A stretch of DNA of 64,000 nucleotides, taken from contig CAZXHG010000013.1 in NCBI GenBank assembly GCA_964639985.1, positions 1,597 through 65,596 of the forward strand, written 5' to 3'. Every line of letters begins with the position of its first letter. The first letter of the stretch is position 1. Position numbers and translations under genes: made by a program. The DNA comes from an uncultured Rickettsiales bacterium (GTDB lineage Bacteria > Myxococcota_A > UBA796 > UBA9615 > CAYRNR01). The notes beneath the pieces are model-generated. The model was not told the origin of the DNA and did not search any database. It saw only the letters and a list, made by a program, of their open reading frames with translations. Positions 1-48,635 of this stretch are shown here, one piece after another.

Positions 1-749
1 GGGTCGATCACCACGACCTTCTGTCCGCCACGGCGGTGGCACTGCACCATGCGGCCGAACAGGGTCGGGTGTCTCTCCGCGGGATCCGCCCCCACGACCA
101 GCACGGCGCCCGCCTCATCCATGGCATCCAGTGGCTGGCTGGCCCCGAAGAATCCGAGCCCTCGCTCCGCAGCCACCACCCCGGCCATGGCGTCCAGCCG
201 CAGGTTGCTCTCCACGGTCGCGCAGCCCAGGAAGCCGCGCAGCAGCCGGTTGAACACGAGGTGGGTCTCGGTGGGCAGACCCACGTCGAGGAAGGTTGCC
301 AGTCCCGAGGGCTTCTTCTTCGCGATCGGTGCCACGTGCTCACCGAGCCAGGCCAGGGCCTGCTCCCACGTCACCGCCTCGAGTCCACCGGTCGAGCCCT
401 TGGTCGCGGGATCACGGCGGAGTAGCGGCTGGCTGACGCGGCGATCCGGGTCCAGTCCCGCCGGGAACGCCATGCCACGGGTGCACAGGCGGCCGTAGTT
501 CACCGGTGACACGGGATCGCCCTTGACGGTCACCGCTCGGCCTCTGCGCACCCCCACGAACAGGGGGTCGGCCATGCCGCACTGGCCGCAGATGCCGCGG
601 TACCAGTGCTCCAGACCAGCCCCGGGGGCATGCAGATCCTGGGACAGCGCCGGGCACAGCCAGCCCAGCGCGGTGCCGCCCAGAGCGGCACTGCAGCCGG
701 TGGCCGCGGCCGCCCTCAACACGTCTCGACGGGTCGGTGTGTTGCCCAT
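1..749 (-). CDS. Tat-exported molybdopterin (Mo/W-bisPGD) oxidoreductase catalytic subunit, NapA/NasA/Fdh-like; runs off the window edge
   Basis: Not in the ORF track; translated by hand from ATG 749: MGNTPTRRDVLRAAAATGC (twin-Arg signal), GICGQCGMAD...KGDPVSPVNYGRLCTRG (N-terminal Fe-S motif), EAVTWEQAL, SNLRLDAM, VLVVGADPAERHP, KVVVID. Starts 4 nt after the upstream stop. Confidence 0.85.
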   Translation of the reverse strand, partial: MGNTPTRRDVLRAAAATGCSAALGGTALGWLCPALSQDLHAPGAGLEHWYRGICGQCGMADPLFVGVRRGRAVTVKGDPVSPVNYGRLCTRGMAFPAGLDPDRRVSQPLLRRDPATKGSTGGLEAVTWEQALAWLGEHVAPIAKKKPSGLATFLDVGLPTETHLVFNRLLRGFLGCATVESNLRLDAMAGVVAAERGLGFFGASQPLDAMDEAGAVLVVGADPAERHPTLFGRMVQCHRRGGQKVVVID

Positions 750-753: not shown

Positions 754-1629
754 CTACCTCCCCCCCGCCTTCCAGGTGGTCAGGATCGGATCCGAATGCT
801 GCAGCCGGTACTCGGAGATCGCGCGGGCATGACACTGCAAGCAGATCTCCACGAACGCCTCCCGTGAAGCCTCGTCCAGCCGGGTCTCGTCGCCCTTCAG
901 CCGCGTCAGCATCCCACTCACGTCGTGGTCCATCACCGTGTCGCAGCGCAGGTCGTTGGTGTGATCGTGTACGTCGGAGAGGCGTACGTGGCACATGTGG
1001 CAGTTGGCGGCCGCGGGCACGTCGTCGGCGTCGAACCCCTCGCGGGCGAAGATCGTGCCCATCTTGGACTGCGCGTAGGTCTGCACGTGTACCGAGTCGC
1101 GGTGGCACGAGTTGCAGGCCGAGGGTTGCTTGACCTCCTCGAGGTCGAACGCGTGGGCGCGGTGGCACGAGTCGCAGCGGATCCCGCTGTCCGGGGTGTC
1201 CGCATGCAGGCCCTTGCGCATGTCCTGCTCTTCCTGGGGGTGGCAGGCCCGACAGCGGTCCGGCCCGGGGTGCGGCACGAACCCGGCCTCGTGCGTGCCG
1301 TGGCACGCCTCGCAGCCGACGCCCACCAGCGCGTGCAGGCTCGTGGCCCAGTCCTCGGTGGCGAACGAGGTCTGGGACGTGGTGTGGCAGTTGAGGCACA
1401 GGCTGGCCACGTGACCGGCGTCCCTGCCCGCGTAGCGCTCACCCACACCCTGGCTGTAGGTGAAGTGGTTGGCGGGCAGCTCCATGTCCAGGAACTCCTG
1501 GCTCCGTCCAGGCGGCACGAGCAGGTCGTCCGGGGCCGGAGGCGGGGCCTCGGCGCGGGTGCACCCCCCGATCCCGACCAGGACGGCCACGATCCAGAGG
1601 GCACTCGAAATCGAAAGTGATTTCAGCAT
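754..1629 (-). CDS. Heptaheme cytochrome c lipoprotein, HAO/octaheme-family fold
   Basis: Seven CxxCH motifs (CLNCH, CEACH, CRACH, CDSCH, CNSCH, CHMCH, CLQCH); lipobox-like LVGIGGC; ATG 1629 preferred over the TTG at 1647. Confidence 0.9.
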   Translation of the reverse strand: MLKSLSISSALWIVAVLVGIGGCTRAEAPPPAPDDLLVPPGRSQEFLDMELPANHFTYSQGVGERYAGRDAGHVASLCLNCHTTSQTSFATEDWATSLHALVGVGCEACHGTHEAGFVPHPGPDRCRACHPQEEQDMRKGLHADTPDSGIRCDSCHRAHAFDLEEVKQPSACNSCHRDSVHVQTYAQSKMGTIFAREGFDADDVPAAANCHMCHVRLSDVHDHTNDLRCDTVMDHDVSGMLTRLKGDETRLDEASREAFVEICLQCHARAISEYRLQHSDPILTTWKAGGR

Positions 1630-1663: not shown

Positions 1664-2857
1664 CTACATCACGTGTTCGTACGCCAGGTCCTTCACCCCG
1701 AAGGGATCGTGGCACTGCACGCACACGTTGCGCGTGGCCATCTGCTCGCGCAGCTGGGTGGACACCTCGTCCAGCAGCCGCTCGCCCTCGGACACGTCCC
1801 CGCTCGCCTGCAGCACCACGGCCGCGGCCATGGCCGCGGCGTAGTCCGCGCCCGGCCCGTGGCAGCCCTCGCAGGTCACGCCCTCCTGCAGCCAGGTGTC
1901 GGTGACCGGGTCGTACCCGGTGGTGTGGCACTCCAGGCAGGGGGTGTTGTCCTCCACCGCCTCGAGGCGGTCGAAGGAGGTGAACTTGGTGGCGCGCCAG
2001 CGCTCCACGTGGCGCCGCTGTCGCGCCTCGTGGCAGCGCAGGCAGGCACCGGAGCCCACGTAGGGCACTGGTCTGCCGGACGAATCGTAGCCCGTCGCGT
2101 CGAGGCCCGTCGGAAGCCGCGGACGCCAGTGGGTGGCGTTGGCCGCCCACCAGGTGCGCCAGCGCCCCACGGCCTCGGCTCGTTCGGCCGCGGGCGCGTG
2201 GTACGCGTACCCGAGGTCCCGGCCCGTCAGCCGGCGCAGGCTGGCCACGGCCGCAGCGCGCTCGGCCTTGTCCCGGTGGTCCAGGGCGTCGACCAGCGGC
2301 TCGAGGGTGACTGCCGGGCCGCGGGTCCAGGGGCGCAGCATCATGAAGCGGTGCGCCTCGTCCGAGCGCAGGGCGCGGCCGTTGCCCCCGTGGCAGACCG
2401 TACAACCCCAGCCCTGGTAGGGGCTCTGGGGCCCGAGGCCGGGGTGCGTGGCAGCGAGGTCGTCCATGCCCGGGTGGCAGGTCCCGCAGCGCTCCACAGT
2501 GCCGTCGGGCGTGATCTGCTCGTCGATCCCCCGGGGGCGCTGCTCCCAGCGGGCGAGCCTCGCCTCGGCATGGTCGAGGTCGGCGCGGTACGCGGCCAGG
2601 TGCCGCAGCTCCGCTTCCCCGGCGTCGGGGGAACTCGCGGCCTCCTCGGCGCGGCGGTAGTCCAGGGATCTCTGCACGTCGTCGAACGTCTGTTGCTCGG
2701 CGAGCAGCGAGGCCTGCGCCGCCCCGCGCTGCTCGGCCACTCGCTGTCGCTGCACGGCGCGGTGCTCGGGGAACACCACCCGCCAGCACAGGGCGACCGT
2801 CACGGCCAGCGCGGCCACGGCGGCGATCGCGAAAAGGCGGCTGGGATCGCGGGTCAC
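1664..2857 (-). CDS. Membrane-anchored hexaheme cytochrome c
   Basis: 3' part of track ORF 1664..3457. GTG 2857 with GGAGG upstream, directly after the upstream stop. N-terminal TM helix, six CxxCH (CGTCH, CTVCH, CLRCH, CLECH, CEGCH, CVQCH), C-terminal c554-like YVGSGAC domain. Confidence 0.9.
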   Translation of the reverse strand: MTRDPSRLFAIAAVAALAVTVALCWRVVFPEHRAVQRQRVAEQRGAAQASLLAEQQTFDDVQRSLDYRRAEEAASSPDAGEAELRHLAAYRADLDHAEARLARWEQRPRGIDEQITPDGTVERCGTCHPGMDDLAATHPGLGPQSPYQGWGCTVCHGGNGRALRSDEAHRFMMLRPWTRGPAVTLEPLVDALDHRDKAERAAAVASLRRLTGRDLGYAYHAPAAERAEAVGRWRTWWAANATHWRPRLPTGLDATGYDSSGRPVPYVGSGACLRCHEARQRRHVERWRATKFTSFDRLEAVEDNTPCLECHTTGYDPVTDTWLQEGVTCEGCHGPGADYAAAMAAAVVLQASGDVSEGERLLDEVSTQLREQMATRNVCVQCHDPFGVKDLAYEHVM

Positions 2858-2859
2858 GC

Positions 2860-3534
2860 TCAGTACACCCCCTCCAGCCAGGGCCACACCCAGGCCCAGC
2901 CCGGACCGCGGAACAGGGCGCCGACCAGGGACAGCAGTACGGCCTCCACTGCGATCCAGGCTCCGATCCAGTGCACCGCAGGCCAGCGGGCCAGTCGCGC
3001 CATCGGCCCACGCGGCCGCTGGATCAGGCCGGGTGCGACCGCGAGGGCGCCGAACAGCGCCGTGGGCACCAGCAGGAGCCAGGGCGCGTGGTCCGCGGTC
3101 AGCGTCATCAGCCCCAGCGCGATCACCAGGCCACCGGCCATCAGCGCGGCCCTCCGCGGTTCGTTCGCCTCCCCGGTCCACAGCGGCCGGTGGGTCAGGT
3201 CCGGGCGGGTGTAGGGCACGACCAACAGCAGCACCACCGCGGCCGCGGGCACGGCCACCCCCGAGATCACGGGCGGGTAATAGTGCAGCAGTTCCTGCAG
3301 GCCCACGAAGTACCACGGCGCCTTGCTCGGATCCGGGGTCACAGACGGGTCCGCGATCTCCAGCAGGGGAGCGTCGACCACCAGGGCCAGCACCGACAGC
3401 GCGGCCATCACCAGCAGCCCGGCCGCGCACTCCAGCAGGAAGAAGCGGGGGAACCACGGCACCGTGGGCCGCGGATCACGGTGTGGCCCGTCCGGCGCGA
3501 CGTCGTGCACGCGTTGTCCGCCCGGCGTGGTCAT
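2860..3534 (-). CDS. petD: Cytochrome b/b6 C-terminal subunit (subunit IV / PetD-like)
   Basis: WFPRFF, APL..IADP..TPDPSKAPWYFVGLQELL (PEWY-equivalent), several TM helices; adjacent to cytochrome b6. Confidence 0.9.
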   Translation of the reverse strand: MTTPGGQRVHDVAPDGPHRDPRPTVPWFPRFFLLECAAGLLVMAALSVLALVVDAPLLEIADPSVTPDPSKAPWYFVGLQELLHYYPPVISGVAVPAAAVVLLLVVPYTRPDLTHRPLWTGEANEPRRAALMAGGLVIALGLMTLTADHAPWLLLVPTALFGALAVAPGLIQRPRGPMARLARWPAVHWIGAWIAVEAVLLSLVGALFRGPGWAWVWPWLEGVY

Positions 3535-3538: not shown

Positions 3539-4273
3539 TCACAGGGGGCGGGTGACGCCCCCGTCCTTTCGTACGCGCCAGAAGTGAAGAGCCATCAGGC
3601 CGACCGTGGCCAGGGGCAGCACGATGCAGTGCAGCACGTAGAAGCGCAGCACGGCTGCGCCGCCCACCTCGTCGCCGCCGAGCAGGAGCCGGCGGAGGAA
3701 CTCGCCCACCAGGGGCACGGACGCCGCCATCTTCGTGCCCACGGACACGGCCCACAGGGCGAGCTGGTCCCAGGGCAGCAGGTAGCCGGTGTAGCTCAGC
3801 GCCAGGGTCAGCAGCAGCAGCGCCACCCCCACCACCCAGTTGAACTCCCGCGGCGGCCGGTAGGCCCGCGCCACGAACACCCGCACCATGTGCAGCAGCA
3901 CCGTGGCCACCATGCCGTGGGCCGCCCAGCGGTGCAGGTTGCGCATGAATGCGCCCGCGGGCACCGCGTACATCAGGTCCTCGATGTCGTGGTAGGCGTC
4001 GGGCACGGTGGGGCGGAACCACACCATCAGGTAGATGCCGGTCACGGTCAGCGCCACGAACAGCAGCGCGGACAGGCCGCCGAGGCAGAACGTGGTGGCG
4101 AAGCGGTAGTCCAGCGGGTGCACCTTCACCGGCCGGATGTGCAGCAGCACGCTGGACAGCACAAACCGGGCGCGGCCGGTGGGGGTGGACTCGTACGCCG
4201 TGCGCACGAACGAACGCCACGGACGCGATCGCGCCACACGCCCCAGCCAGCCCTCGCGCCGTGGCTCGCTCAT
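3539..4273 (-). CDS. petB: Cytochrome b6-type N-terminal subunit (PetB-like)
   Basis: [56 protein letters not shown]; FCLGG heme-ci cysteine; ATG 4273 overlaps the Rieske stop. Confidence 0.95.
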
Positions 4274-4701
4274 GCGGGCTCCCCGTCCGGATCGACCACC
4301 AGCCGGCCCTGGTCGTCCAGGCCCACGGCCACGGCCACCAGGTCTTCCCGCGCTGGACCGTTGAGCACGTGGCCGTCCGGCTCGAAGCGGCTGCCGTGGC
4401 AGGGACAGTGGAAGCGCTCCTCCTCCTCCAGCCACCGCACCACGCAGCCCAGGTGCGGGCAGACCGTGGACAGGGCGTAGAACCCGTCGGCGGTGCGGCC
4501 CACGGCCAGCTGGTCCGCGGGCAGCAGCAGCACGCCGTCCAGCGGGATGTCCTCTGGAAAGCCCGCCACCACCGCTGCGTCGGCGCGCGTCGACGGCCAG
4601 GGCGTGGCGAACCGCAGGGACACGAACGCCCCCAGGCCGCAGGTCGCGGCCAGCGCGGTCGCGCCCTGGCGCAGCAGTCGGCGACGGGTCGGGTCAGCCA
4701 C
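4270..4701 (-). CDS. petC: Rieske 2Fe-2S protein with Tat signal
   Basis: TRRRLLR signal; CPHLGC and CPCHGSRF boxes; GPA motif. Confidence 0.95.
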
Positions 4702-6172
4702 GGTGCGGCTCCTCGCCCAGCTGGTGGGCGGACAGGCACTCGGCCGGACACCGCTCGATGCACAGTCCGCAGCGCAGGCAGCGTGAGCCGTCCCAGTGCA
4801 GCCCGTCCAGCAGGCGCAGCGCGCTCACCGGGCAGCCGTTCACGCAGCGGCCACAGGCCAGGCAGGCGTCGGCGTGGGCGCGCGGACCGACCTGGGTCCA
4901 GCAGTCCAGGCAGCGCCGGCCCTCGGCCGATGGCTCGTCGAGACGAGGGGAGTGGGGTGGGTTGGGGTGGGACGGACCGCGCTCGAACCCGGGGCCGGGG
5001 CCCGGTACGTGGACCGCTCCTCCGGCGAGATCGCGGTCGATGTGGGAGGCCATGGAGTGGCCGTGGGCCACGGCCGCGATCACCGTTCCCGCGCCGGTGA
5101 GGTCGCCGCCGGCGATGCCCCCCGGCGGGGCCTCCAGGCCCGGCGTACGGCCGATGGCGACGACCACGCTGTCCACGGCCAGCCGAGTCCGGCTGGCTGG
5201 CCTCACGCGAGGGCGGTAGCTGCCGCGCGGGTCGTGGTACGTGGCCACCCGCGAGTGGATCACGGCGGTGACCCGATCGTCTCCGTCGATCGAGACGGGG
5301 ACCACGCCAGTGACCTGCCGGACGCCCTCGTCCCGGGCGGCCCGCGCCTCCTGCTGGCGGGCGCGGCCCTCGAGCGAGAGTCGGCGCACCAGCAGGGTCA
5401 CGTCGCGGCCCGTTCGGACCAGCGCGCGCGCGGCGTCGACGGCCGTGTCGCCCCCTCCGATCACGGCCACGTCGTGGCCGAGGCCGAGGTCATCGCCCGC
5501 CACGCCCGCGCGCAACACGTCGAGCCCGTCGTGCACGCCAGGGAGGTCGTGGCCCGGTACGTCGAGTGGCCGACCGCGGGGCAGTCCCGTGGCCACGGCC
5601 ACGCGCTCGAAGCCGTCGGCGAGCAGGTCATCGACCGAGTCCACCGGGGTGCTGCAGCGCAACTCGAACCCCGCGTCGAGCATGGCGCGGACGTCGGCCT
5701 CCAGCGCCTCGGTGGGCAGGCGGAACCGGGGGATGGCGTGGCGCGGCATGCCGCCGGGCTCGGCGTGGGCCTCGAACGCGGTCACGGCGTAGCCGAGCAG
5801 GGCCAGGTCGTAGGCAGCGGTCAGGCCGGCCGGTCCGGCTCCGACGATGGCCACGCGCCGTCCCTCTCCTCGGTCCAATCGGGGTGGCGTGGGAGGGGGC
5901 GTACCGCCCTCGACCGCGACGCGCTTGAGTCGCCGCAGGGCCAGGGGCTCGTCAACGGCCGAACGGGCGCAGGCATCCTCGCAGGGGTGGGTGCAGATGA
6001 AGGCGCAGGTCCGCACGAACGGGTTGCGCAGGGCGGCGAGGCGGAATGCCTCGTCCAGATCACCGCGGGCCACGGCGCGGGCGTAGAGCCCGGCCGGTGT
6101 GTGCACCGGACAGGCCCGTCGGCACCCGATCCCTTCCAGCAGCGGCAGCAGCAGCTCGGGCCGGCTCCCCAT
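4694..6172 (-). CDS. FAD/NAD(P)H-dependent oxidoreductase, GltD/NfnB/DsrL-like, with C-terminal 2x[4Fe-4S] ferredoxin domain
   Basis: CRRACPVH and CAFICTHPCEDAC Fe-S motifs, VAIVGAGPAG (FAD), VIGGGDTAVD (NAD(P)), CLACGRCVNGCP and CLRCGLCIERCP; AGGAG RBS before ATG 6172; no signal peptide. Confidence 0.9.
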   Translation of the reverse strand: MGSRPELLLPLLEGIGCRRACPVHTPAGLYARAVARGDLDEAFRLAALRNPFVRTCAFICTHPCEDACARSAVDEPLALRRLKRVAVEGGTPPPTPPRLDRGEGRRVAIVGAGPAGLTAAYDLALLGYAVTAFEAHAEPGGMPRHAIPRFRLPTEALEADVRAMLDAGFELRCSTPVDSVDDLLADGFERVAVATGLPRGRPLDVPGHDLPGVHDGLDVLRAGVAGDDLGLGHDVAVIGGGDTAVDAARALVRTGRDVTLLVRRLSLEGRARQQEARAARDEGVRQVTGVVPVSIDGDDRVTAVIHSRVATYHDPRGSYRPRVRPASRTRLAVDSVVVAIGRTPGLEAPPGGIAGGDLTGAGTVIAAVAHGHSMASHIDRDLAGGAVHVPGPGPGFERGPSHPNPPHSPRLDEPSAEGRRCLDCWTQVGPRAHADACLACGRCVNGCPVSALRLLDGLHWDGSRCLRCGLCIERCPAECLSAHQLGEEPHRG

Positions 6173-6268: not shown

Positions 6269-6637
6269 CTACTCCTCGGCGTCGACGCGGTCGAAGTGGT
6301 ACTGCAGGAAGGACTGGATCCTCGCCCCGGTGCCAGGGGAGATACCGGAGTTGGGCTTGCGGGACATGCGGGTCACGTAGCGGCTCCAGTCGTCGCCGCG
6401 GTACTCGGAGTTGATGGATCGGGCCAGGGTGTGGCACTTGCTGCACTTCTTGGCGTACAGCCGGTACAGCTCCTGCATGTCTTCGGGGTAGTCGCTGACG
6501 TCGATGGCGGCCGGGCCGAAGTCGGCGTCGAAGACCTTCTCGTCGCCGTCTTCCTCCTGCGCCAGGCCAGGCGTGGTCATCGCGCCCAGCACCACGATCG
6601 CGGTCACCGTCAGCAGCCATGCCAGCATCGTTCTCAT
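6269..6637 (-). CDS. Exported monoheme cytochrome c
   Basis: Signal peptide ending PGLA-Q; CSKCH; distal Met candidate in YVTRMSRK; GAGG 9 nt before ATG 6637. Confidence 0.85.
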   Translation of the reverse strand: MRTMLAWLLTVTAIVVLGAMTTPGLAQEEDGDEKVFDADFGPAAIDVSDYPEDMQELYRLYAKKCSKCHTLARSINSEYRGDDWSRYVTRMSRKPNSGISPGTGARIQSFLQYHFDRVDAEE

Positions 6638-6795: not shown

Positions 6796-8916
6796 ATGGA
6801 ACCCACCCGGGAGATCATGTGGAACGTGCACTGGATGCGGTGGCCGATCTACGGCCCGGCGCTGATCGCGTTCGGCATCATGGCGTGGGGATTCTGGAAG
6901 GAGTATGGACGCCGCAGCGTGCTGTTCCGCGCTGCCCGGCCGGACGACGAGCGGCGCAAGGAACTCGGCCGGCGGATCTTCGACGCGCTGCGCTACCTGT
7001 TCGGCCACCAGCGGATCCTGCGTGAGACCTACCCCGGCGTGATGCACTGGCTGGTGTTCTTCGGCTTCTTCGTGCTGTTCGTGGTCACGCTGCTGGTGAT
7101 GGTGCAGGAGGACTTCACGGCCCTCTTCTTCGGCGTGGAGTTCCTGAAGGGCCCGACCTACCTGGTGTGGTCGCTCGCCGGCGACGTGTTCGGACTGGGA
7201 CTGCTGATCGGCGCGGGCATGGCGCTCGTGCGTCGCTACATCGCGCGGCCGAAGCGGCTGGACAGCCGGCCCATGGAGTTGTGGGCGCTGCTGCTGATCC
7301 TCGGGTTGCTGCTGACCGGGTTCTTCGCCGAGTCCCTGCGCATGGTCGGGGACGGCGAGGTGGGCGCGCCCTGGGCGCCGTGGTCGCCGGTGGGCTGGCT
7401 GGGCGCCCTGCTGCTGCGGGGCACGGGCATGGGCGAGGGCACGGTGCGGCTGTTGCACGCGGTGGACTGGCAGGTGCACATGGTGCTGGCGCTGGTGTTC
7501 GTGGCCACCATCCCGTGGTCGAAGTTCTGGCACATGGTGCCCGGCTTCGCCAACGTGGTGCTGCGCAACGAGGCGCCCAAGGGCGATCTGCCGACCCTGG
7601 ACATGGAGGATCTCGAGGACGAGACCCGCGAGACCTTCGGTATCCACCGGGTGGACGAGTTCACCTGGAAGGACCTGCTCGACACCGAGGCCTGCATGCG
7701 ATGTGGCCGCTGTACGGACGCTTGCCCGGCGTTCGCCACGGACAAGCCGCTGAACCCCAAGAAGATCATCCAGGATCTCAAGGCCAACGCCGACGAGAAG
7801 CTCGGCCTGTGGTTCGACGCCGCGGGCAACGTCAAGGAGGACGTGGACCGCGAGGCCGAGGGCACGACGCTGGTCCACGGCTCGGACGCGGGTGAGGACC
7901 TGCCCGCGGGCGCCATCGGGTTCGAGGAGCTGTTCGCCTGCACCAGCTGCCGCGCGTGCATGGAGGCGTGCCCGGTTCACATCGAGCACGTGCCCAAGAT
8001 CCTGTCCATGCGCCAGTACCTGACGCTGATGATGAGCGACTTCCCCAAGGAGGCGCAGGCCGTGATGCGCAACCTGGAGAACAACGGCAACCCCTGGGGC
8101 ATCGGCATGGCCCAACGCGGCGAGTGGGCCGAGGGCCTGGACGTGCCCACCTTCGAGGAGGCCCCGGACTCCGAGTACCTGCTGTTCCCGGGGTGCGCGG
8201 GCGCGTTCGACGACCGCAACCGCAAGGTGGCGCGGGCTACGGCCGAGTTGCTGAAGCGGGCAGGCGTCAGCGTCGCCACGCTGGGCGGCCAGGAGACCTG
8301 CTGCGGCGACCCGGCGCGGCGCATCGGCAACGAGTACCTGTTCGCCATGCAGGCCCAGATGAACATCGAGCTGTTCAACAGCTACGGCGTGAAGAAGATC
8401 GTCACCATCTGCCCCCACGGATTGACCGTGCTGGGCACGGAGTACCGCCGCCACGGCGGCGACTTCGAGGTGGTGCACCACGCCGAGCTGCTGGCGCAGC
8501 TGGTGGCCGAGGGCCGGCTGACGCCGGAGCGGACCCCGGACGGCGTCAAGAACGTGACGTACCACGACTCGTGCTACCTCGGTCGCTGGAACGACATCTA
8601 CGAGCCCCAGCGCGACATCCTGCGTGCGCTGCCCGGCGTGCACGGGGAGGAGATGCCGCGCCACGGCTCCACCAGCTTCTGCTGTGGCGCGGGCGGCGGA
8701 CGGCTGTGGATGGAGGAGAACCTCGGCACGCGGATCAACCACGACCGGGTGAACGAGGCGTTGGGCACGGGCGCGGACACCCTGGTCTCGGCCTGCCCCC
8801 ACTGCATGATCATGCTCGGCGACGGCGTGTCGGGCATGCAGAAGCAGGACGACCTGGCGCTGAAGGACGTGGCCGAGCTGCTGCTCGACGCCCTCGGCGA
8901 CCGCGGAGGGGAGTGA
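6796..8916 (+). CDS. Membrane-bound heterodisulfide-reductase-like Fe-S protein (NarI-like TM + 4Fe-4S dicluster + two CCG domains; FadF/HdrF type)
   Basis: TM helices with His residues; CMRCGRCTDACP and CTSCRACMEACP; ETCCG and FCCGAGGG; YHDSCYLGR; GGAGG before ATG 6796. Confidence 0.88.
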   Translation: MEPTREIMWNVHWMRWPIYGPALIAFGIMAWGFWKEYGRRSVLFRAARPDDERRKELGRRIFDALRYLFGHQRILRETYPGVMHWLVFFGFFVLFVVTLLVMVQEDFTALFFGVEFLKGPTYLVWSLAGDVFGLGLLIGAGMALVRRYIARPKRLDSRPMELWALLLILGLLLTGFFAESLRMVGDGEVGAPWAPWSPVGWLGALLLRGTGMGEGTVRLLHAVDWQVHMVLALVFVATIPWSKFWHMVPGFANVVLRNEAPKGDLPTLDMEDLEDETRETFGIHRVDEFTWKDLLDTEACMRCGRCTDACPAFATDKPLNPKKIIQDLKANADEKLGLWFDAAGNVKEDVDREAEGTTLVHGSDAGEDLPAGAIGFEELFACTSCRACMEACPVHIEHVPKILSMRQYLTLMMSDFPKEAQAVMRNLENNGNPWGIGMAQRGEWAEGLDVPTFEEAPDSEYLLFPGCAGAFDDRNRKVARATAELLKRAGVSVATLGGQETCCGDPARRIGNEYLFAMQAQMNIELFNSYGVKKIVTICPHGLTVLGTEYRRHGGDFEVVHHAELLAQLVAEGRLTPERTPDGVKNVTYHDSCYLGRWNDIYEPQRDILRALPGVHGEEMPRHGSTSFCCGAGGGRLWMEENLGTRINHDRVNEALGTGADTLVSACPHCMIMLGDGVSGMQKQDDLALKDVAELLLDALGDRGGE

Positions 8917-11858: not shown

Positions 11859-12533
11859 ATGGAGCTGTTCGACGTGCTGGGATACGGCGTGTGCCATCGT
11901 GAGCCGGCGCGCACCATGGCGGATGCATGGCTGTGCTATCGCTGCAGCGGGCTGTACGCCGGTGGCCTGCTGGGTGTTCTCGTCGCGGGGTGGTTCGACC
12001 GGCGCCTCGGCGTGGGCGTGCAGGTCATGGTCTGCGGCCTGCTGCTGGCTCCGATCGCCATCGACACCCAGTTCTTCGGCCGGGGCTCGCCCTTCGACGT
12101 GGGCTGGTGGCGGCTGGTCAGCGGTGCACTCGCGGGAGTTGGCAGCGGGCTGTTCTTCGGCGCCCGCGCGGTGCGGCGGGTGGCGTGGCCGTCCGCGGCG
12201 CGACCCCTCGTGGCCACGGCCGCGGTGTGGGGGCCGCTGCTGATCGCGCTGGCTGTGGTGTTGCGTGGGTTCGGCGTGGCCGCGGGCCTCGACCTGGCCG
12301 TGGGCGCCGGCCTGACCGCGCTGTGCTTCGCGGGTACGGCCTGGGGCCTGGCGGTGGCGCGCTGGCTCGTCAACCGGCTGACGTGGCTGCGGCTGGAGGT
12401 GCGGCCGTTCTCCTCGAACCTCCTGGCGGCCGTCGTGGTCGCCGAGCTGGTGGCCGTGTCGCTGATCCCCAACCAGTACAAGCCCAGCGGCCTGTGGCTG
12501 CGGCCGGTGCTGGAGCTGCTCGGGCTGCGATGA
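11859..12533 (+). CDS. DUF2085-like membrane protein
   Basis: GYGVCHREPART...LCYRCSGLYAG motif followed by multiple TM helices. Confidence 0.75.
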   Translation: MELFDVLGYGVCHREPARTMADAWLCYRCSGLYAGGLLGVLVAGWFDRRLGVGVQVMVCGLLLAPIAIDTQFFGRGSPFDVGWWRLVSGALAGVGSGLFFGARAVRRVAWPSAARPLVATAAVWGPLLIALAVVLRGFGVAAGLDLAVGAGLTALCFAGTAWGLAVARWLVNRLTWLRLEVRPFSSNLLAAVVVAELVAVSLIPNQYKPSGLWLRPVLELLGLR

Positions 12534-12571
12534 CGTCGCGGCCGCTCCACGCGCGCGCTACCATCGGACCG

Positions 12572-15118
12572 ATGACTCTCGCGCGGATCCCGTGGGCGTG
12601 GCTATCGATCGTGGCGTGTGCGCTGGCCTGGCCGGCCGCGGCCCATTTTCCCCACGATCCGATGGCCGAGATCGCCATCGACGCGAGCGGTGAGCGGATC
12701 GTGGCGCAGTACCTCTACCCCGGGCGACGGCTGGTGGTGGTCAGCGAGGATGCGGGCCGCACCTGGGCGTTCGTGGCCCCCGAGGCCGCGCGGGAGCAGC
12801 TCGACAGCCTGCAATTCGCCGGCGGCGAGTCCCTCGTCGCCGCGGACGCCATGGCGGCCCACCCCTGGGTGAGCCACGACGGCGGCTACCGCTGGGACGC
12901 GTTGTCCGAGCCGGACGGCGCGCCCGTGCACCACGTCGCGCCCGCCCCGGGCTACGACGAGCAACCCACCCTGTTCGCCGGCACGGAGCTCGGCGTGGCG
13001 CGCAGTGATGATGGTGGCGCCACGTGGACCACGCTGGCAGGCGCGCCGGGCGGTCCCGTGAGGAAGATCGCGGTGGCGCCTGGCTGGCCGGACGATCCAG
13101 TGGTGGTCACCGTGGGGGACGAGGGCGTGTGGTTCGGCGAGGACGGCGGGCTGGACTGGCGACTGGCCCTGGGGCCGTCGGAGCTCCCCGCCGTGGTGAC
13201 CCTGTCGCCGCGGTTCGCCGAAGACGACCGCCTGTGGATCGGCACCCGGGACGGCCTGCTGCTGCGCAGCGACGATCGCGGAGGGGAATGGACGACCGTG
13301 CGCCCCGAGCCGGAGTCCATCGGCGCTCTCGACGAGATGGTGCAGGACCTGCTGGCCCTGTCGGACCAGCGCCTGCTGGCGGTCACGGCCAGCTACGGGG
13401 TGCTGTGCAGCGACGACGCCGGGGATTCGTGGGCCATGTGCTCCGAGGGGCTGCCGGCGCGGACCAGCCAGTTCAGCAGCAGCTGGGGACACTATCGTCG
13501 GCTCGATCGGGCGGTGAGCTCGCCCGACGAGGTGGTGCTCGGGGCCTGGGAGGGGCTGGTCGCGAGCCAGGACGGCGGGGCCACGTGGGAGGAGCGCTGC
13601 GCGCTGCAGCCGACCTACGTGCGCTCGGTGGGGTTCTCGCCGGCCTATCCCGACGATCCGAGCCTCTGGGTGGGTTCGTACGGCGCGGGGGTGTACGTGA
13701 CTCGCGACGGCGGGCTCGGCTGGACCGTGCTCGACGGGCTGCCCTACGCCCTGCACACCGAGGCCGTGGCCGTGAGCCCGGCCTGGCCGCACGATCCGCG
13801 CATGTTCGTCATCGGCTCCCGCCGGCTGCTGGTGTCGGCGGACGGGGGCCTGGGGTTCGCCGTTCAGGAGTTCCCGGACGTGCAGCTGATGCACCAGGTG
13901 GTGCTCGCCCCGGACTTCGACCTGGGGGGCCCGGTGATGGCCACGGGCACGACCGACGACGAGGGGCACTGGGGGGTGGTGCGCAGCGACGACGGCGGCG
14001 TGAGCTGGGAGCAGGTGTGGCTGGCGGCCGAGCCCCCCGCGCCCCAGATCACCCGGATCGCCTTCTCGGCGGTCGCGGCGGACGTGCTGTACGGAGCCCA
14101 GCGGGAACCCGCGGCCGTGGTGATATCCCGGGACGGCGGCCGGAGCTGGACGGAGCTGCAGGCCGTGGAGGGCGACGACGAGCCCGCGGCCCTGGAGGTG
14201 CTGGCAGTGGATGGCGCCGACCGCGTCGTCGCGCTGATGCCCGGAGGCCAGGTCTGGCTCGGAGGCGCCGACGCGGGGTCGTTCGACCTCGTGACCGACC
14301 TGGGCGCCGCCGTGATCTGGGGTGGGGTCGGGGGGACGGGCTCGGATGTGCTCCTCGCCTCGCTGGATCCACCGGCCCTGGTGCGGTCCCTGGACCGGGG
14401 CGAGAGCTGGCAGCTGCTCGAGGTGCCCTTCGGGTCGGTGGTGCTGGCTGCGGCGGTGCCGCCGGACCATCCGGACGACCCCACGGTGGTGGCATCCACC
14501 CACTACGGCACCTTCGTCTCCTGTGACGGGGGGAGCGCGTGGCAGCTGCTGGATCGCATGGTGCGCTGGGAGCACGGCGCGTGTGACCTGCGCTACCCGG
14601 CGATCGAGCCCGACCTGCTGCTTGGCCCGGGCACCGGCGGCGCGGCCGCCGTGATGCGCAGCGCGAGCGACGCGGTCGAGGTCGCGTTCCACGGCCGCGC
14701 GGTGCGCTGGCTGTCCTGGCGGGGCCCGGCGTGGGGCGCGGCGGACGTGTGGCTCGACGGCGAGGTGGTGGCCCACGTCGACCTGGCCGCGGATGTGGCC
14801 AGCGGTCCCGTGGTGGTGTTCGAGGAGGATCTCGGCGAGGACGGTGAGCATCAGCTGCGGGTGGAGGTGACCGACGCGCGTGGCGGCGTGGTGGTGGATG
14901 CGATCGAGGTGGAGCGCGACGCCGTCGACAACGGCCCGGACGAGCACTACGAGAGCATGGACTGGTGCGTGGACCTGCCGGCGTGGGAGGAGCCCACGCC
15001 GATCGGCGGCGGGTGCTGTGCTTCGGGGGACGGCGGCGCGCCCGAGGTGCAGGTGGGCGCGATGATCGTGCTGTTGGGGGTGGTCTGGGGCCGCCGGCGA
15101 TCCGGGGCGGGAGGGTAG
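12572..15118 (+). CDS. Surface protein with BNR/Asp-box beta-propeller repeats, jelly-roll domain and MYXO-CTERM-like anchor
   Basis: Signal peptide ending AAA-H; more than 10 S-x-D-G-G-x-x-W repeats; C-terminus GGGCC + hydrophobic helix + RRR. Alternative start at ATG 12530. Confidence 0.85.
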   Translation: MTLARIPWAWLSIVACALAWPAAAHFPHDPMAEIAIDASGERIVAQYLYPGRRLVVVSEDAGRTWAFVAPEAAREQLDSLQFAGGESLVAADAMAAHPWVSHDGGYRWDALSEPDGAPVHHVAPAPGYDEQPTLFAGTELGVARSDDGGATWTTLAGAPGGPVRKIAVAPGWPDDPVVVTVGDEGVWFGEDGGLDWRLALGPSELPAVVTLSPRFAEDDRLWIGTRDGLLLRSDDRGGEWTTVRPEPESIGALDEMVQDLLALSDQRLLAVTASYGVLCSDDAGDSWAMCSEGLPARTSQFSSSWGHYRRLDRAVSSPDEVVLGAWEGLVASQDGGATWEERCALQPTYVRSVGFSPAYPDDPSLWVGSYGAGVYVTRDGGLGWTVLDGLPYALHTEAVAVSPAWPHDPRMFVIGSRRLLVSADGGLGFAVQEFPDVQLMHQVVLAPDFDLGGPVMATGTTDDEGHWGVVRSDDGGVSWEQVWLAAEPPAPQITRIAFSAVAADVLYGAQREPAAVVISRDGGRSWTELQAVEGDDEPAALEVLAVDGADRVVALMPGGQVWLGGADAGSFDLVTDLGAAVIWGGVGGTGSDVLLASLDPPALVRSLDRGESWQLLEVPFGSVVLAAAVPPDHPDDPTVVASTHYGTFVSCDGGSAWQLLDRMVRWEHGACDLRYPAIEPDLLLGPGTGGAAAVMRSASDAVEVAFHGRAVRWLSWRGPAWGAADVWLDGEVVAHVDLAADVASGPVVVFEEDLGEDGEHQLRVEVTDARGGVVVDAIEVERDAVDNGPDEHYESMDWCVDLPAWEEPTPIGGGCCASGDGGAPEVQVGAMIVLLGVVWGRRRSGAGG

Positions 15119-20151: not shown

Positions 20152-22908
20152 TCAATCGCTCAGGGTGAACGCGAGGTACTCCCCGGGGGGGATCTGGAAG
20201 CGCCGCTGCAATGACTCGGCGTCGGCGGTCCAGGCCGCCTCGCCCGCGGCCTCGGCCGAGAATTCCAGCGAGCCCACCATGGTGGAGGACAGGACCCCGG
20301 TGTTGGACAGCACCAGCGCCCAGCTGCGGGTGCGGGGCAGCTCCACGGACAGCTCCCCGGTGGCCGCGTCCAGCAGCGACGTCTGGGCCTCGAACGGCTC
20401 GCCGTCCTTGAACAGGTCGTAGTTGGCCGCGTCCACCACGAACGCGTCGAGGTGGCCGCCCTCCTGCTCGAGGGACAGCTTGCCGGAGTAGGAACCGTCC
20501 GCCTCGATGCGGTGGCCCTCCACGTCGAAGGCGAGCTGCCAGCGCGCGTCCAGCGGCTCACCGTCGGTGAGGTCGGCTTCGGCCAGGTCCAGGTCCGCGG
20601 GCATGGCCCCGCCGATCGCCTGGGTCAGCAGGTAGGTCTCGTAGGGCTCGCTCATCTCCACGCCCTGATACAGGGAGTCCCCGCCGGGTTCGTTGCCGAT
20701 GGGCGACGCGACCGAGTACCCATAGGGGTTGTACTCCCCCACCGTGGACGAGGCGAACCCGTCGATGTCCGTGATCAGCTCCGCAGCCCAGGTCCACGCG
20801 TCCGGGTAGCCGTACACCGCCCACGTGCCATAGACGGTGACCACGGCGCCGTCCACGGGGCGGCCGTCCTCGTCGGTCACCTCGAACTCCAGGTAGGACG
20901 GGAGGGTCACGTACTCGTCGGTCATGGTCGTGCTGATGTAGGTGTCGCCGCGGCCGCCCGTCATGGCGTACAGGCGGTTGGTGGACAGGCCCGGGTCGGA
21001 GGCGTCGGGGTGGCGACCCGCGTCGAGGTCGTCGCAGTCGCCCGTCTCGAGGGTCCAGCCGTCGCCGTCCCGGTCGTGGCCGCGCAGCCCCTCGTCGGCC
21101 TGGCCGTCGCAGTTGTCGTCGATGCCGTTGGGCAGCTCGACCGCGTCGGGGTTCACGTCCGGGTTGGTGTCGTCGCAGTCGTGGAAGATGATCTCCACGC
21201 CGTCGCCGTCGTTGTCCTCCATGGACGTGCCGCTGTCGGCGTCGCCATCGCAGTCGTCGTCGACCAGGTTGTCCACCTCGGTGGCGCCGGGGTGGATCGT
21301 GTCCACCCAGTCGTTGCAGTCCCCGTCGGCGATGGTGTAGCCGTCCCCGTCCCTGTCCAGGTACGGGTCGAGGAAGCCCTCGTCGGCGGTGCCGTCGCAG
21401 TTGTCGTCCACTGCATTGCCGGTTTCGGCCGCGTCCGGGTGGCGGGCCGCGTCGTTGTCGTCGCAGTCACCGCCGGCGATGGTGTAGCCATCCCCGTCCG
21501 CGTCGGCCTCGTCGAGCCCGTCGTCGGCCGTTCCGTCGCAGTCGTCGTCCAGACCGTTGGTCGCCTCGGTGGCGCCCGGGTACACCGCGGCGTCCGTGTC
21601 GTCGCAGTCACCCGCGGACAGGGCCACGCCGTCACCGTCCGCGTCCAGGTCGGCCTCGGACATGCCCGGGTCGGCCACGCCGTCGCAGTCGTCGTCGTAG
21701 CCGTTGTGCAGCTCGGGAGCGCCCGGGTAGACGTCCGCGTCGTTGTCGTCGCAGTCGAAGGTGGCGGGTGAGTACCCGTCGCCGTCCACGTCGTCGGTGT
21801 CCAGCGCGTCGTCGGCGATGCCGTCGCAGTCGTCGTCCTCGCCGTCGCGGCTGATCCCGCCCTTGTAGTAGTTGAAGTAGTCCACGTGGGTCCCGATGGG
21901 CTCCCAGGCGACCCAGCGGTCGTCCCAGAACTCGTCCCAGGTGTGGTCGTTGGAGCGCGCGCCCACGTTGCGACAGGGGATCAGGGCGGTGCGCGCGGCG
22001 GCCGAGGTCAGGTCCGCGTGCTCGCCGCAGTTGCCGGCCCCCACCGTGTAGATGCGCACCGGCTGGATCGGCCGCTCGTCGCCCGCGCCGAAGTCGATGG
22101 TGTCCCAGACGAACTGGATGATCTCGCCGATGGCGCCGTTGTCCGTGCGGGTCTCGGCCTTGCTGTTCCACACCGTGTCGATGCCGTCGAAGTAGTCGGC
22201 CAGCAGGTAGCAGGTGTGGTCTCCGGGGCACTCGTCCGCGGCCGCGTCCCAGAGGAACTCGCGCCAGAACCAGCCGTTGTCCGGGCTCGTGCCGCTGGCG
22301 TTGACCCAGCCGTCGATGAACAGCGGGTACTCGTCCTCCAGGCGTGGGTGGACCACGTACCAGTAGTAGATGTCGCGGTCGATGGTCTTGTCCTCGACGG
22401 TGCCGTCCTCGTACCCGATGCGGTACGTGGCGGTCGTGTAGTAGTCTGGATCGATCCCCGGTTCACCCACGTCCTCGAGCTGCACGAAGTCCAGCAGCGG
22501 ATCGTAGGCATAGATCAGCTCGGCGTTCACGGTCAGCAGCTCGGGGTAGAACGTGTGGTACTCCAGCACCGAGCGGGACGTGTGGGCGATGGCGAATGCG
22601 ATCTCGTCGATCAGGTACACGTCCTCCGCGTCCACGATCAGCATGGCCAGGTCGTCCTGGTCCTCGTCGTTGAGCCGGTCGAAGGCGATGGCCAGATCGT
22701 CGGTCAGCCAGGTCGGCACCAGCTCGAGCGCCTCGTACGCCAGCTCGGTGAGGCCCAGGGGTTCGTGCACCACCTCCAGCAGGGGCGGGTCGACCGGGTC
22801 GCTGACCTCGGCGGTGGTGTCGTCGTCGTCGTCGATGTCCTCGGTGGTGGGGCAGGCGACGAGGGTGAGGGCGAACAGGCTACAGGCCAGGGCCAGCAGG
22901 TGTCTCAT
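20152..22908 (-). CDS. Lipoprotein with a transglutaminase-like core and MopE-type metal-binding repeats
   Basis: LTLVAC lipobox, poly-Asp linker, GNCGEHA...DHTWDEFW...WVAWEP, tandem DGDG..DCDD...PGA.E..NG.DDDCDG repeats; GGAG RBS before ATG 22908. Confidence 0.85.
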   Translation of the reverse strand: MRHLLALACSLFALTLVACPTTEDIDDDDDTTAEVSDPVDPPLLEVVHEPLGLTELAYEALELVPTWLTDDLAIAFDRLNDEDQDDLAMLIVDAEDVYLIDEIAFAIAHTSRSVLEYHTFYPELLTVNAELIYAYDPLLDFVQLEDVGEPGIDPDYYTTATYRIGYEDGTVEDKTIDRDIYYWYVVHPRLEDEYPLFIDGWVNASGTSPDNGWFWREFLWDAAADECPGDHTCYLLADYFDGIDTVWNSKAETRTDNGAIGEIIQFVWDTIDFGAGDERPIQPVRIYTVGAGNCGEHADLTSAAARTALIPCRNVGARSNDHTWDEFWDDRWVAWEPIGTHVDYFNYYKGGISRDGEDDDCDGIADDALDTDDVDGDGYSPATFDCDDNDADVYPGAPELHNGYDDDCDGVADPGMSEADLDADGDGVALSAGDCDDTDAAVYPGATEATNGLDDDCDGTADDGLDEADADGDGYTIAGGDCDDNDAARHPDAAETGNAVDDNCDGTADEGFLDPYLDRDGDGYTIADGDCNDWVDTIHPGATEVDNLVDDDCDGDADSGTSMEDNDGDGVEIIFHDCDDTNPDVNPDAVELPNGIDDNCDGQADEGLRGHDRDGDGWTLETGDCDDLDAGRHPDASDPGLSTNRLYAMTGGRGDTYISTTMTDEYVTLPSYLEFEVTDEDGRPVDGAVVTVYGTWAVYGYPDAWTWAAELITDIDGFASSTVGEYNPYGYSVASPIGNEPGGDSLYQGVEMSEPYETYLLTQAIGGAMPADLDLAEADLTDGEPLDARWQLAFDVEGHRIEADGSYSGKLSLEQEGGHLDAFVVDAANYDLFKDGEPFEAQTSLLDAATGELSVELPRTRSWALVLSNTGVLSSTMVGSLEFSAEAAGEAAWTADAESLQRRFQIPPGEYLAFTLSD
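20995..21850 (-). repeat. In-frame tandem coding repeats (six full plus two half units of about 45 aa)
   Basis: Recurring gccgtcgcagtcgtcgtc-type DNA corresponds to the DCDD/DDDCDG protein repeats. Confidence 0.85.
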
Positions 22909-23012
22909 GGCGGATCTCCGGTGGGTGCGTGGACATTGTCGCACGGAGGGGGCCGGGACTGGAGGGAAAGCCGAACGCTGCGGCCCATGCTGGAACATGG
23001 GCCCCGAGGGGA

Positions 23013-31673: not shown

Positions 31674-31691
31674 AGGACGAGGTTGCTGACG

Positions 31692-32021: not shown

Positions 32022-32038
32022 GAAGGGCTCGGGGGGTC

Positions 32039-42062: not shown

Positions 42063-42074
42063 CGCGCGCGTAGG

Positions 42075-42103: not shown

Positions 42104-42148
42104 CGACATTGCGGTGGTAGCTGTATTTCAGGCTGTACAGGCAGGCGG

Positions 42149-48526: not shown

Positions 48527-48535
48527 GCGATGAGC

Positions 48536-48620: not shown

Positions 48621-48635
48621 ACGAAAAGGTGAAAC

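Follow-up and report, generated by a model that had tools for sequence, protein, structure and literature searches.

A probable molybdenum enzyme with aspartate at two ligand positions of a NapA/formate dehydrogenase scaffold, encoded with predicted parts of a Rieske/cytochrome b complex

Enzymes that carry molybdenum or tungsten on a bis(pyranopterin guanosine dinucleotide) cofactor (Mo/W-bisPGD) are classified mainly by the residue bound to the metal. This residue can be Cys, selenocysteine (Sec), Ser, Asp or none, and it is thought to tune the redox potential and the choice of substrate. What can be expected of such an enzyme when it is built like the periplasmic nitrate reductase NapA or formate dehydrogenase (Fdh) and Asp takes the place of Cys both at the metal and at the N-terminal iron-sulfur cluster, FS0? 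This question is raised by a gene at the left edge of a 64,000-nucleotide stretch of DNA from an uncultured bacterium (contig CAZXHG010000013.1, positions 1,597 to 65,596; the whole stretch is called the window here). The answer proposed is that the gene encodes a catalytic, Asp-ligated Mo/W-bisPGD oxidoreductase that forms the periplasmic head of a Rieske/cytochrome b complex. For the whole of this reading, the chances are judged to be about even.

The gene for this subunit (the Mo subunit) lies on the minus strand. Its start codon is ATG at 749-747, and the reading frame leaves the window at the left end. When an alignment of the family was searched against 5.8 billion protein clusters, the full-length product was recovered as P0171 (748 aa), the N-terminus of which matches the 249-residue fragment in the window exactly. 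The gene and the sites in question are as follows:

1..749, minus strand: 5' part of the gene for the Mo/W-bisPGD catalytic subunit, 249 of 748 codons (from Pfam domains and full-length P0171)
717..734, minus strand: twin-arginine motif T-R-R-D-V-L, residues 6-11 (from the model TAT_signal_seq)
567..590, minus strand: FS0 motif C54-G-Q-C57-G-M-A-D61, Asp replacing the third Cys (from the family-profile alignment)
477..485, minus strand: fourth FS0 Cys, C89, and the "bridge" residue R91, in G-R-L-C-T-R-G (from a hidden Markov model (HMM) alignment)
186..209, minus strand: Mo-ligand loop S181-N-L-R-L-D186-A-M188 (from the family-profile alignment)

The FS0 region translates as W-Y-R-G-I-C54-G-Q-C57-G-M-A-D61-P, with D61 encoded by GAC at 569-567. 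D186 is encoded by GAC at 194-192 and stands within V-E-S-N-L-R-L-D186-A-M. A preliminary description had read C-G-Q-C-G-M-A-D at 567-590 and an Asp at 192-194, and translation gives exactly these coordinates. Two Pfam domains were detected in the fragment (PF04879 Molybdop_Fe4S4, 40.4 bits; PF00384 Molybdopterin, 49.5 bits). Full-length family members match PF00384 and PF01568 (Molydop_binding), and all three domains are on record for P0171. The N-terminus, M-G-N-T-P-T-R-R-D-V-L, scores 20.2 bits on the NCBIfam model of the twin-arginine translocation (Tat) signal against a cut-off of 16.7, and its R-R pair is invariant in an alignment of five sequences. From this motif the Mo subunit is predicted to be targeted to the periplasm by Tat. 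A further residue, Cys237 of P0171 (in Q-C-H-R; 39-41, minus strand), is invariant in the family and is Ala in Nas-type relatives.

Do the two Asp residues really occupy the ligand positions? A profile of 19 family members was aligned with the PDB sequences of solved enzymes. The best solved relative was NapA of Desulfovibrio desulfuricans (E 9e-95, residues 42-695 covered), whose known ligands, Cys13/16/20/54 and Cys140, serve to verify the numbering. D61 was found to correspond to Cys20, the third cluster cysteine, and D186 to Cys140, the latter gap-free. In equally gap-free profile alignments D186 also falls on Sec140 of Escherichia coli FdhH, on the Cys of FdhF from the hydrogen-dependent CO2 reductase (HDCR) and on the selenocysteine of F420-dependent formate dehydrogenase. 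A single-sequence phmmer alignment had shifted D186 into a gap beside Cys140; this placement was rejected, as the profile aligns four distinct top enzymes without a gap. The earlier assignment of the two Asp residues to the third Fe-S cysteine and the Mo-ligand cysteine is thus borne out by the profile alignment to NapA Cys20/Cys140 and FdhH Sec140. The carboxylate of D186 would then bind Mo (or W), as the Asp of NarG-type enzymes does, and with D61 the FS0 site would hold an Asp-ligated [4Fe-4S] or else a [3Fe-4S] cluster of raised potential.

The scaffold was likewise described correctly from the outset as that of NapA and Fdh, to judge from the Pfam domains, the NapA E-value and the structural comparison. 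An AlphaFold2 model of P0171, which was built from a 76-sequence alignment and holds no cofactors, reached a mean predicted local distance difference test score (pLDDT) of 87.5 and a predicted template modelling (TM) score of 0.90. The parts of low confidence are the signal peptide (residues 18-43 below 50, as expected) and a family-specific insertion at 691-702. The best Foldseek matches of the model were the NapA structures 2v45/2nap (TM 0.83/0.86, root-mean-square deviation 2.9 Å, 26% identity), followed by FdhH (TM 0.81/0.85). The Asp-ligated perchlorate reductase PcrA ranked 46th, with TM 0.66-0.68 and 13-14% identity. The model thus shows a four-domain Mo-bisPGD fold like that of NapA, and membership of the Mo/W-bisPGD (DMSO reductase / MopB) superfamily, on a NapA/Fdh scaffold, is supported.

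The two Asp residues are conserved in what is a rare family, of about 20 clusters among the 5.8 billion searched. Nineteen clusters scored 794-1082 bits, and the next match, an assimilatory nitrate reductase, scored only 572. An exhaustive HMMER scan of 1.84 billion representatives, for which the query was the 249-residue fragment only, returned five proteins with E < 1e-30, namely three family representatives (51-62% identity) and two relatives (36-37%). Both Asp residues were found again in homologues at 50-76% identity, and a conservation check that had been set beforehand gave Asp, not Cys, in the close homologues. For comparison, 253 non-family Nap/Nas/Fdh-like proteins, which were the best matches of two large searches, were aligned to the family HMM. 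All 20 family sequences that cover the FS0 site have Asp there, and all 20 have Arg after the fourth FS0 Cys, a position filled by Lys in about 240 of the 253 relatives. The Mo-site Asp is found in 19 of 21 family members. Of the relatives, 234 have Cys at the FS0 position, and four (P0010, P0011, P0012 and P0144) were called as Asp or Glu there; P0144 in fact reads CPYCGVGC, and its call was discarded as an artefact of alignment. At the Mo-ligand position 239 relatives have Cys and only two, P0011 and P0012, have Asp. Because both residues are conserved in the family while Cys dominates both sites in the 253 relatives, the substitutions are put down to neither chance nor drift.

Where did Asp ligation come from? 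Four sister proteins, P0010-P0013, are informative here. They show 32-34% identity over the full length to a family member (L001) and share with the family an S-D-L-x-G-G-T-D-G-R-x-E-P-E insertion in domain IV. P0011 and P0012 keep the Mo-site Asp, with Asp or Glu at FS0; P0010 combines a Mo-site Cys with an FS0 Asp, and P0013 has Ser at the Mo site. Downstream of the gene for P0010 (locus L007) lie NapD-like, CBS and HPP-family genes. In a neighbour-joining tree (83 sequences, 687 columns, Kimura distances, 100 bootstraps) the core family was recovered in 100% of replicates, the core with P0011 and P0012 (all of the Mo-site Asp proteins) also in 100%, and this Asp clade with P0010 and P0013 in 92%. 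Taken at face value, this distance tree of divergent sequences would place the FS0 Asp earlier and the Mo-site Asp later, acquired once in a formerly Cys-using lineage.

The preliminary description had also stated that Asp ligation is typical of the NarG/EbdA clade. This agrees with a survey from 2023 that covered 47,011 members of the superfamily, 1,570 of them in a tree; it counts NarG, PcrA, ClrA, SerA, DdhA, EbdA, S25dA, CmdA and haloarchaeal DmsA among the Asp-coordinated enzymes, and NapA among those coordinated by Cys (PMC10100899). The Asp-coordinating members are discussed there as one lineage (PMC10100899). Because the Asp clade described here nests among relatives with Cys or Ser, the tree suggests that its Asp ligation arose independently of the NarG lineage.

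Could the protein simply be a NapA orthologue whose ligands have drifted neutrally, or the product of an error or a pseudogene? NapA is the closest solved relative, the Cys-bearing P0010 has NapD-like and HPP-family genes downstream, and an engineered NapA C176D retains some nitrate reductase activity (PMC12769810). The scores on NCBIfam models speak against an ordinary NapA. Full-length L001 reaches 114 bits on the NapA equivalog NF010055 against a cut-off of 904 and 98.7 bits on TIGR01706 against 930.55, and the window fragment reaches 76.9 and 69.7 bits, respectively. The position of NapA Arg354, which is also that of FdhH Arg333, is Leu in the family, the position of NapA Met141 and FdhH His141 is Ala, Gly or Ser, and the N-Q of NapA is replaced by T-R. 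The genes napB, napD, napC and napGH are absent from the operon described below, and the counts at the two Asp sites are those of conserved residues rather than of drifting ones. A sequencing error or pseudogene was rejected, since three assemblies (two from ENA, one from JGI) have contigs with a gene for exactly this 748-aa protein (the longest contig, of 71,007 bp, being evidently the source of the window), the full-length frame is intact with a third-position G+C (GC3) of 0.86, and both Asp residues recur in homologues. An ordinary NapA or an error is therefore very improbable and is regarded as effectively excluded.

In fact, every NCBIfam model of a Mo enzyme scores far under its cut-off. 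The best for a full-length member was Fdh-alpha, at 157 bits against 666 (TIGR01591 gave 157-206 bits across the sequences scored). The narG model TIGR01580 gave 17.7 bits against 1084, the arsenite_ox_L model TIGR02693 gave 25.1 against 359, and the QrcB and NuoG models gave 50-60 bits, far under their cut-offs; TIGR03479 did not match the family.

Is the pterin cofactor retained? The positions conserved across catalytic Nap/Nas/Fdh proteins were compared with the family and with ActB-like and NuoG-like matches, with attention to those that bind the molybdopterin guanine dinucleotides (MGD). The family keeps D249-P-R251, A259-D260, P268-G-x-D/E271, N372, G375 and N441, and likewise D477-x-x-L-P481, E488-x-x-G491, R498, H618, R622 and H687. 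Most of these are invariant, among them D249, R251, D477, N441, E488 and R498. The ActB-like proteins P0156 and P0134 have G249 and H477, and the NuoG-like P0149 has N249, V251 and H477. The funnel loop P366-L-L-x-G-x-N372-A-x-G375-A and the segment H617-H618-x3-R622 are also invariant or nearly so in the family. The preliminary description had advised a look at the MGD motifs in the then missing C-terminus, and in the full-length family the MGD-binding residues are indeed kept. Taken together, these residues point with moderate confidence to an active site that is remodelled yet constrained and that retains the pterin cofactor.

The most informative part of the evidence is the operon context. 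The Mo gene is the last of an eight-gene operon, and the gene order is identical in all six loci compared (the window's contig, L001, L002, L088, L089 and L090), which come from different lineages and encode Mo proteins that are 50-60% identical to one another. In the order of transcription, the seven genes upstream of the Mo gene in the window are:

6269..6637, minus strand: secreted monohaem cytochrome c, 122 aa, with the motif CSKCH; first operon gene
4694..6172, minus strand: NfnB/GltD-like NAD(P)-binding FAD iron-sulfur flavoprotein with a C-terminal 2x[4Fe-4S] ferredoxin domain
4270..4701, minus strand: Rieske [2Fe-2S] protein with a Tat signal and the motifs CPHLGC and CPCHGSRF
3539..4273, minus strand: cytochrome b6-like subunit, 244 aa (PF00033, 141.7 bits)
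2860..3534, minus strand: subunit-IV-like membrane protein, cytochrome b C-terminal part (PF00032, 21 bits)
1664..2857, minus strand: hexahaem cytochrome c, 397 aa, six CxxCH motifs, N-terminal membrane anchor
754..1629, minus strand: heptahaem cytochrome c, 291 aa, seven CxxCH motifs, possible lipoprotein signal

The first position is held by a gene of 118-122 aa in L088 and L090 also, and by one of 175 aa in L089. The flavoprotein has NfnA (9n5u, E 1e-56), NfnI and GltD as its best PDB matches. A mechanically called open reading frame (ORF) at 1664-3457 on the minus strand (597 aa) overlaps the subunit-IV gene, and the hexahaem gene was called as the 397-aa version from 2857; the high G+C of this DNA gives rise to many long spurious ORFs in all frames.

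The heptahaem gene ends 4 nt ahead of the start of the Mo gene. In the wider clade a multihaem gene lies directly upstream of the Mo gene, abutting or overlapping it, in L006 and L007, and in P0012 (1117 aa) a heptahaem cytochrome and the Mo subunit are fused in one polypeptide. Because of these adjacent or overlapping genes and the fusion, there is good evidence that the Mo subunit has its direct redox partner in the heptahaem cytochrome, a probable functional analogue of NapB.

The remaining genes resemble those of complexes that have been described in the anammox bacterium Kuenenia. In those complexes, b6-like and subunit-IV (SUIV)-like subunits are accompanied by a putative NAD(P) oxidoreductase and by cytochromes c with six or eight haems, which replace cytochrome f; one of the complexes, Kuste4569-74, additionally has a catalytic octahaem protein like hydroxylamine oxidoreductase (HAO), Kuste4574 (bioRxiv 10.1101/2025.06.25.661457). 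They have been proposed to bifurcate the electrons of quinol: one would go via Rieske and haem c to the reduction of nitrite by Kuste4574, and the other via the b-haems to NAD(P)+ (bioRxiv 10.1101/2025.06.25.661457). For a second complex, Kustd1480-85, no exergonic partner reaction has yet been proposed, according to the same authors (bioRxiv 10.1101/2025.06.25.661457). The best PDB matches of the Rieske protein in the window were 9rk4 and 9rk3, ahead of all b6f Rieske proteins, and AioB-type proteins were also among the matches. The Kuenenia-style molecule names of 9rk4 and 9rk3 suggest, without proof, that they are the structures of the Kuenenia study. The Kustd1480 Rieske protein has a Ser/Phe second-sphere pair and a midpoint potential (Em) of +335 mV (bioRxiv 10.1101/2025.06.25.661457); the same Ser/Phe pair is present in the C-P-C-H-G-S-R-F of the window protein, for which a high potential is predicted. 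These window genes therefore correspond to the parts of an anammox-type Rieske/cytochrome b complex, the assembly of which is predicted from the genes.

How would such a complex work with a Mo subunit as its head? In the scheme proposed here, quinol would be oxidised, and one electron would pass from the Rieske protein through the hexahaem and heptahaem cytochromes c to FS0 and on to Mo. The heptahaem cytochrome would dock on the Mo subunit as NapB does on NapA. The Mo centre would reduce a high-potential oxyanion in the periplasm, for which nitrate, chlorate or perchlorate, selenate and iodate are candidates. The other electron would travel through the b-haems to the NfnB-like subunit and form NAD(P)H, and the reduction of the oxyanion would make this reduction of NAD(P)+ in the other branch thermodynamically possible. 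The role of the HAO-like Kuste4574 in the Kuenenia complex would thus fall to the Mo subunit.

Several observations weigh against this scheme and the enzyme at its head. The Mo-site residue is Ala in the family member P0165 and Gly in P0009, and alignment is the sole basis on which D186 is placed at the metal. The family has lost T-G-R, a widely conserved motif in domain IV; it shows G-A-D for G-S-N, a change also seen in ActB-like proteins, and T-R or variable residues where the M-G-I-N-Q loop has N-Q. On Pfam and NCBIfam models of Mo enzymes the family scores far lower than the Cys-bearing P0010 (Molybdopterin domain, 78-96 versus 236 bits). A gene for a NapD/NarJ/TorD-type chaperone or for the molybdenum cofactor (Moco) was not found in the 64-kb window, an absence that tells nothing in a fragment of a genome. 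The direction of the electrons and the bifurcation that forms NAD(P)H are hypotheses even for the anammox complexes (bioRxiv 10.1101/2025.06.25.661457).

Some of these observations are what would be expected if the protein were a non-catalytic scaffold in which Mo-bisPGD has been lost or is unused, a structural or Fe-S electron-transfer subunit like ActB, QrcB or NuoG/Nqo3. Neither canonical ligand is left, the Mo site of two family members holds Ala or Gly, T-G-R is lost, G-A-D and C-x-R are common to the ActB-like P0156 and P0134, scores on Mo-enzyme models are low, no Moco chaperone gene was found nearby, and the gene lies inside a respiratory-complex operon, as do those for ActB, QrcB and NuoG. 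The active-site residues point the other way. D249 and D477, which are lost in the ActB-like and NuoG-like proteins, are invariant here, together with N372, N441, E488, R498 and H618. The Mo-site Asp is retained across lineages that are only 32% identical, and the funnel loop around it is among the best-conserved segments. Arsenite oxidase is active without any protein ligand to Mo, so that the variants with Ala or Gly need not be dead. The change from C-x-K to C-x-R was rejected as a sign of cofactor loss; NarG too has a bridging Arg after its last FS0 cysteine. The ActB-like matches share this Arg, but it also stands beside the fourth FS0 cysteine in catalytically active DmsA-type enzymes, where C-x-R is normal (PMC12636705). 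Because the MGD residues are kept and the active-site loop is among the best-conserved segments, the catalytic reading is favoured, and a mere scaffold is thought unlikely. The preliminary description had left the choice between a new specificity with an altered cluster and a non-catalytic scaffold; the former is now preferred on account of the MGD residues and the conserved loop, and the latter has lost ground.

If the enzyme is catalytic, in which direction would it run? The same enzyme and wiring could serve oxidation, with the Mo centre taking electrons from nitrite (in the manner of nitrite oxidoreductase, NXR), arsenite, dimethyl sulfide or another donor. The electrons would then leave through multihaem and monohaem cytochromes c to a terminal oxidase, and the Rieske/cytochrome b-NAD(P) module would be used for reverse electron flow and autotrophy. 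Arsenite oxidase has a high-potential [3Fe-4S] cluster and is partnered with a Rieske protein. The three-Cys FS0 of the family resembles that cluster, AioB-type proteins are among the matches of the window Rieske protein, and the small soluble monohaem cytochrome c of the operon could carry electrons off. Asp-ligated enzymes also include the dehydrogenases or oxidases DdhA, EbdA, S25dA and CmdA (PMC10100899). However, the Rieske protein is of the b6f/anammox type and comes with cytochrome b and subunit IV, rather than being an AioB-type small subunit; the arsenite_ox_L model gives just 25 bits against 359; and neither terminal oxidase nor carbon-fixation genes were found in the 64-kb window. 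The published energetics of the homologous complexes also call for a high-potential acceptor, not a donor (bioRxiv 10.1101/2025.06.25.661457). It is mainly for this last reason that the oxidising direction is considered less likely, and overall it appears rather improbable.

A reductase of oxyanions is favoured because several natural Asp-ligated enzymes reduce such oxyanions, the Rieske potential is predicted to be high and the Asp variant of NapA is active. NarG, PcrA, ClrA and SerA reduce high-potential oxyanions with their natural Asp ligand (PMC10100899), and the engineered NapA C176D of Campylobacter jejuni is still active on nitrate, chlorate and perchlorate (PMC12769810). Nothing singles out one of the candidate substrates: the nitrate-binding residues of NapA are not conserved, and the operon contains no transporter or accessory gene that would give a hint. 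A bolder version can be put forward only tentatively: that the family is a second, independent invention of Asp-Mo ligation on the NapA/Fdh scaffold, joined to the FS0 Asp, and serves as the built-in high-potential electron sink of a bifurcating complex that makes NAD(P)H from quinol, with a new substrate, possibly an oxyanion other than nitrate (iodate, chlorate or selenate). A respiratory module that has hitherto been hypothesised for anammox bacteria only would then occur in an unrelated uncultured lineage. More remote still is a variant in which the three-Cys/Asp FS0, with its exchangeable ligand, would itself bind the substrate; FS0 has been claimed as a substrate-binding site for DmsA paralogues of Salmonella (PMC12636705).

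The surroundings of the operon include one gene that might be connected with it and a large number of housekeeping genes. The features of note are:

6796..8916, plus strand: divergent membrane protein with CCG and 2x[4Fe-4S] motifs (HdrD/DsrK-like), about 710 aa, two CCG domains
20152-23199, minus strand: protein of 1015 aa, in which four putative copper-binding repeats of the MopE type are combined with a transglutaminase core
30537-47050, plus strand: complete division and cell wall (dcw) cluster, with mraW, ftsI (C-terminal PASTA), murE/F/D, ftsW, murC, murB, ddl, ftsQ and ftsZ
48454-49518, minus strand: array of ten closely packed tRNA genes, about 1.1 kb long
50652-54449, minus strand: two adjacent large proteins with weak DUF3604 matches

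The first of these genes adjoins the operon both in the window's contigs and in L088, where its homologue also matches a NarI-type haem-b domain; in L089 and L090 it is absent from this place. It is possible that it encodes an accessory or second quinone-linked module, its membership in the system being uncertain. The remainder of the window is housekeeping in character, with the dcw cluster, cysS, prmA, smpB, the tRNA array, radical-SAM genes and an OPT transporter; the dcw cluster has an unannotated gap at 44.5-45.7 kb between ftsQ and ftsZ. The G+C content is about 70% throughout. FtsZ shows 74% identity to that of another metagenome-assembled genome (MAG) labelled Rickettsiales and at most 66% to those of Myxococcota and Bdellovibrionota MAGs. 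Given these relatives and the G+C content, the Rickettsiales label of the related MAGs looks doubtful.

Downstream of the Mo gene, four related loci have a terminator-like hairpin and then a convergent rRNA operon in the order 5S-23S(-tRNA-tRNA-16S):

L090, 12222-17350, opposite strand: convergent rRNA operon downstream of the Mo gene (16S, two tRNAs, 23S, 5S)
L001, 12168-12676, opposite strand: part of the convergent rRNA operon
L002, about 12190-12628, opposite strand: part of the convergent rRNA operon
L088, 12361-12864, opposite strand: part of the convergent rRNA operon

The contigs examined, that of the window included, end 85 to about 580 bp past the Mo gene, and the conserved rRNA operon that adjoins explains these breaks.

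In the literature, which was covered in part so that absence is not proven, no description was found of a natural Asp-ligated enzyme of the Nap/Fdh type or of an FS0 motif C-x2-C-x3-D. Within the same partial coverage, no description was found either of a Mo enzyme whose gene accompanies an operon for a Rieske/cytochrome b-NAD(P) reductase. The proteins are classified here as a new, rare family of the Mo-bisPGD superfamily, with a ligand set unprecedented for the scaffold and a new type of partner complex. If this is true, a natural Asp enzyme with the NapA/Fdh fold would be the convergent counterpart of the engineered NapA C176D and a system in which the question of ligand and reactivity can be addressed, and the paired FS0 Asp would be an unusual cluster site in the superfamily. 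A homologous complex with a presumptive partner enzyme in the same operon bears on the question of the partner of Kustd1480-85. It also suggests that complexes with an NAD(P) reductase are not restricted to anammox bacteria, and it would provide a second, independent system for the bifurcation hypothesis.

How does the family compare with known systems? With D. desulfuricans NapA (2NAP/2V45, monomeric) it shares Tat export, the four-domain fold, an N-terminal FS0 motif placed alike, the MGD residues (D-P-R, P-G-T-D, N, A-D-x-x-L-P, E-x-x-G, R) and a partner gene for a c-type cytochrome. It differs in Asp for Cys140, Asp for Cys20 and a bridge Arg for Lys (C-x2-C-x3-D...C-x-R versus C-x2-C-x3-C-x(n)-C-x-K). 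Arg354 and Met141 are not conserved, T-G-R is lost, and an S-D-L-E-G-G-T-D-G-R-x-E-P-E insertion and a C-terminal tail are present. The partner is heptahaem where NapB is dihaem, nap accessory genes are missing, and the NCBIfam score is about one eighth of the cut-off. Unlike FdhH/FdhF, the family has Asp-Ala at the Sec/Cys140-His141 pair and Leu at the catalytic Arg333.

The enzymes of the NarG type (NarG, NxrA, PcrA, ClrA, SerA, DdhA and EbdA) have in common with the family an Asp at the metal site, an Arg after the last FS0 Cys (C-P/T-R) and, it is likely, high-potential chemistry. The likeness of the metal-site Asp is drawn by way of the Nap/Fdh Cys/Sec position, the proteins being too divergent for a direct alignment with NarG Asp222. 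They belong to a different lineage and fold subclass, with an FS0 of H-x3-C-x3-C...C where the family has C-x2-C-x3-D...C, and the operon was found to lack a gene for a four-cluster ferredoxin subunit (NarH-type) as well as one for a NarJ-type chaperone. AioAB and IdrAB resemble the family in that FS0 has three Cys ([3Fe-4S] in Aio), Mo is bound by neither Cys nor Sec, a Rieske protein is associated and the redox couple is periplasmic and of high potential. However, Aio lacks the fourth cluster ligand (Ser; C-x2-C-x3-C...S) and any protein ligand to Mo, and its Rieske protein is the small subunit of the enzyme itself and comes without cytochrome b. Like ActB of alternative complex III (ACIII), QrcB and NuoG/Nqo3, the Mo subunit is a MopB-fold protein that is predicted to sit within a membrane respiratory complex, without a Cys ligand and with the G-A-D and C-x-R variants; with ActB and QrcB it also shares a Tat signal. 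Unlike the ActB/NuoG-like proteins, it keeps D249, D477 and the other MGD residues and conserves a specific Asp at the ligand site.

The operon as a whole can be compared with those of Kuenenia. Like Kustd1480-85, it combines a Rieske protein, b6-like and SUIV-like subunits, a multihaem cytochrome c that replaces cytochrome f and an NAD(P) FeS flavoprotein in one operon, and like Kuste4569-74 it has a periplasmic catalytic module. Unlike in Kuenenia, this module is a Mo-bisPGD protein rather than an HAO-like octahaem, and one additional monohaem cytochrome c is encoded. The hosts also differ: Kuenenia is a planctomycete, whereas the window comes from an uncultured bacterium with a G+C content of about 70% and an FtsZ nearest to those of Myxococcota/Bdellovibrionota MAGs.

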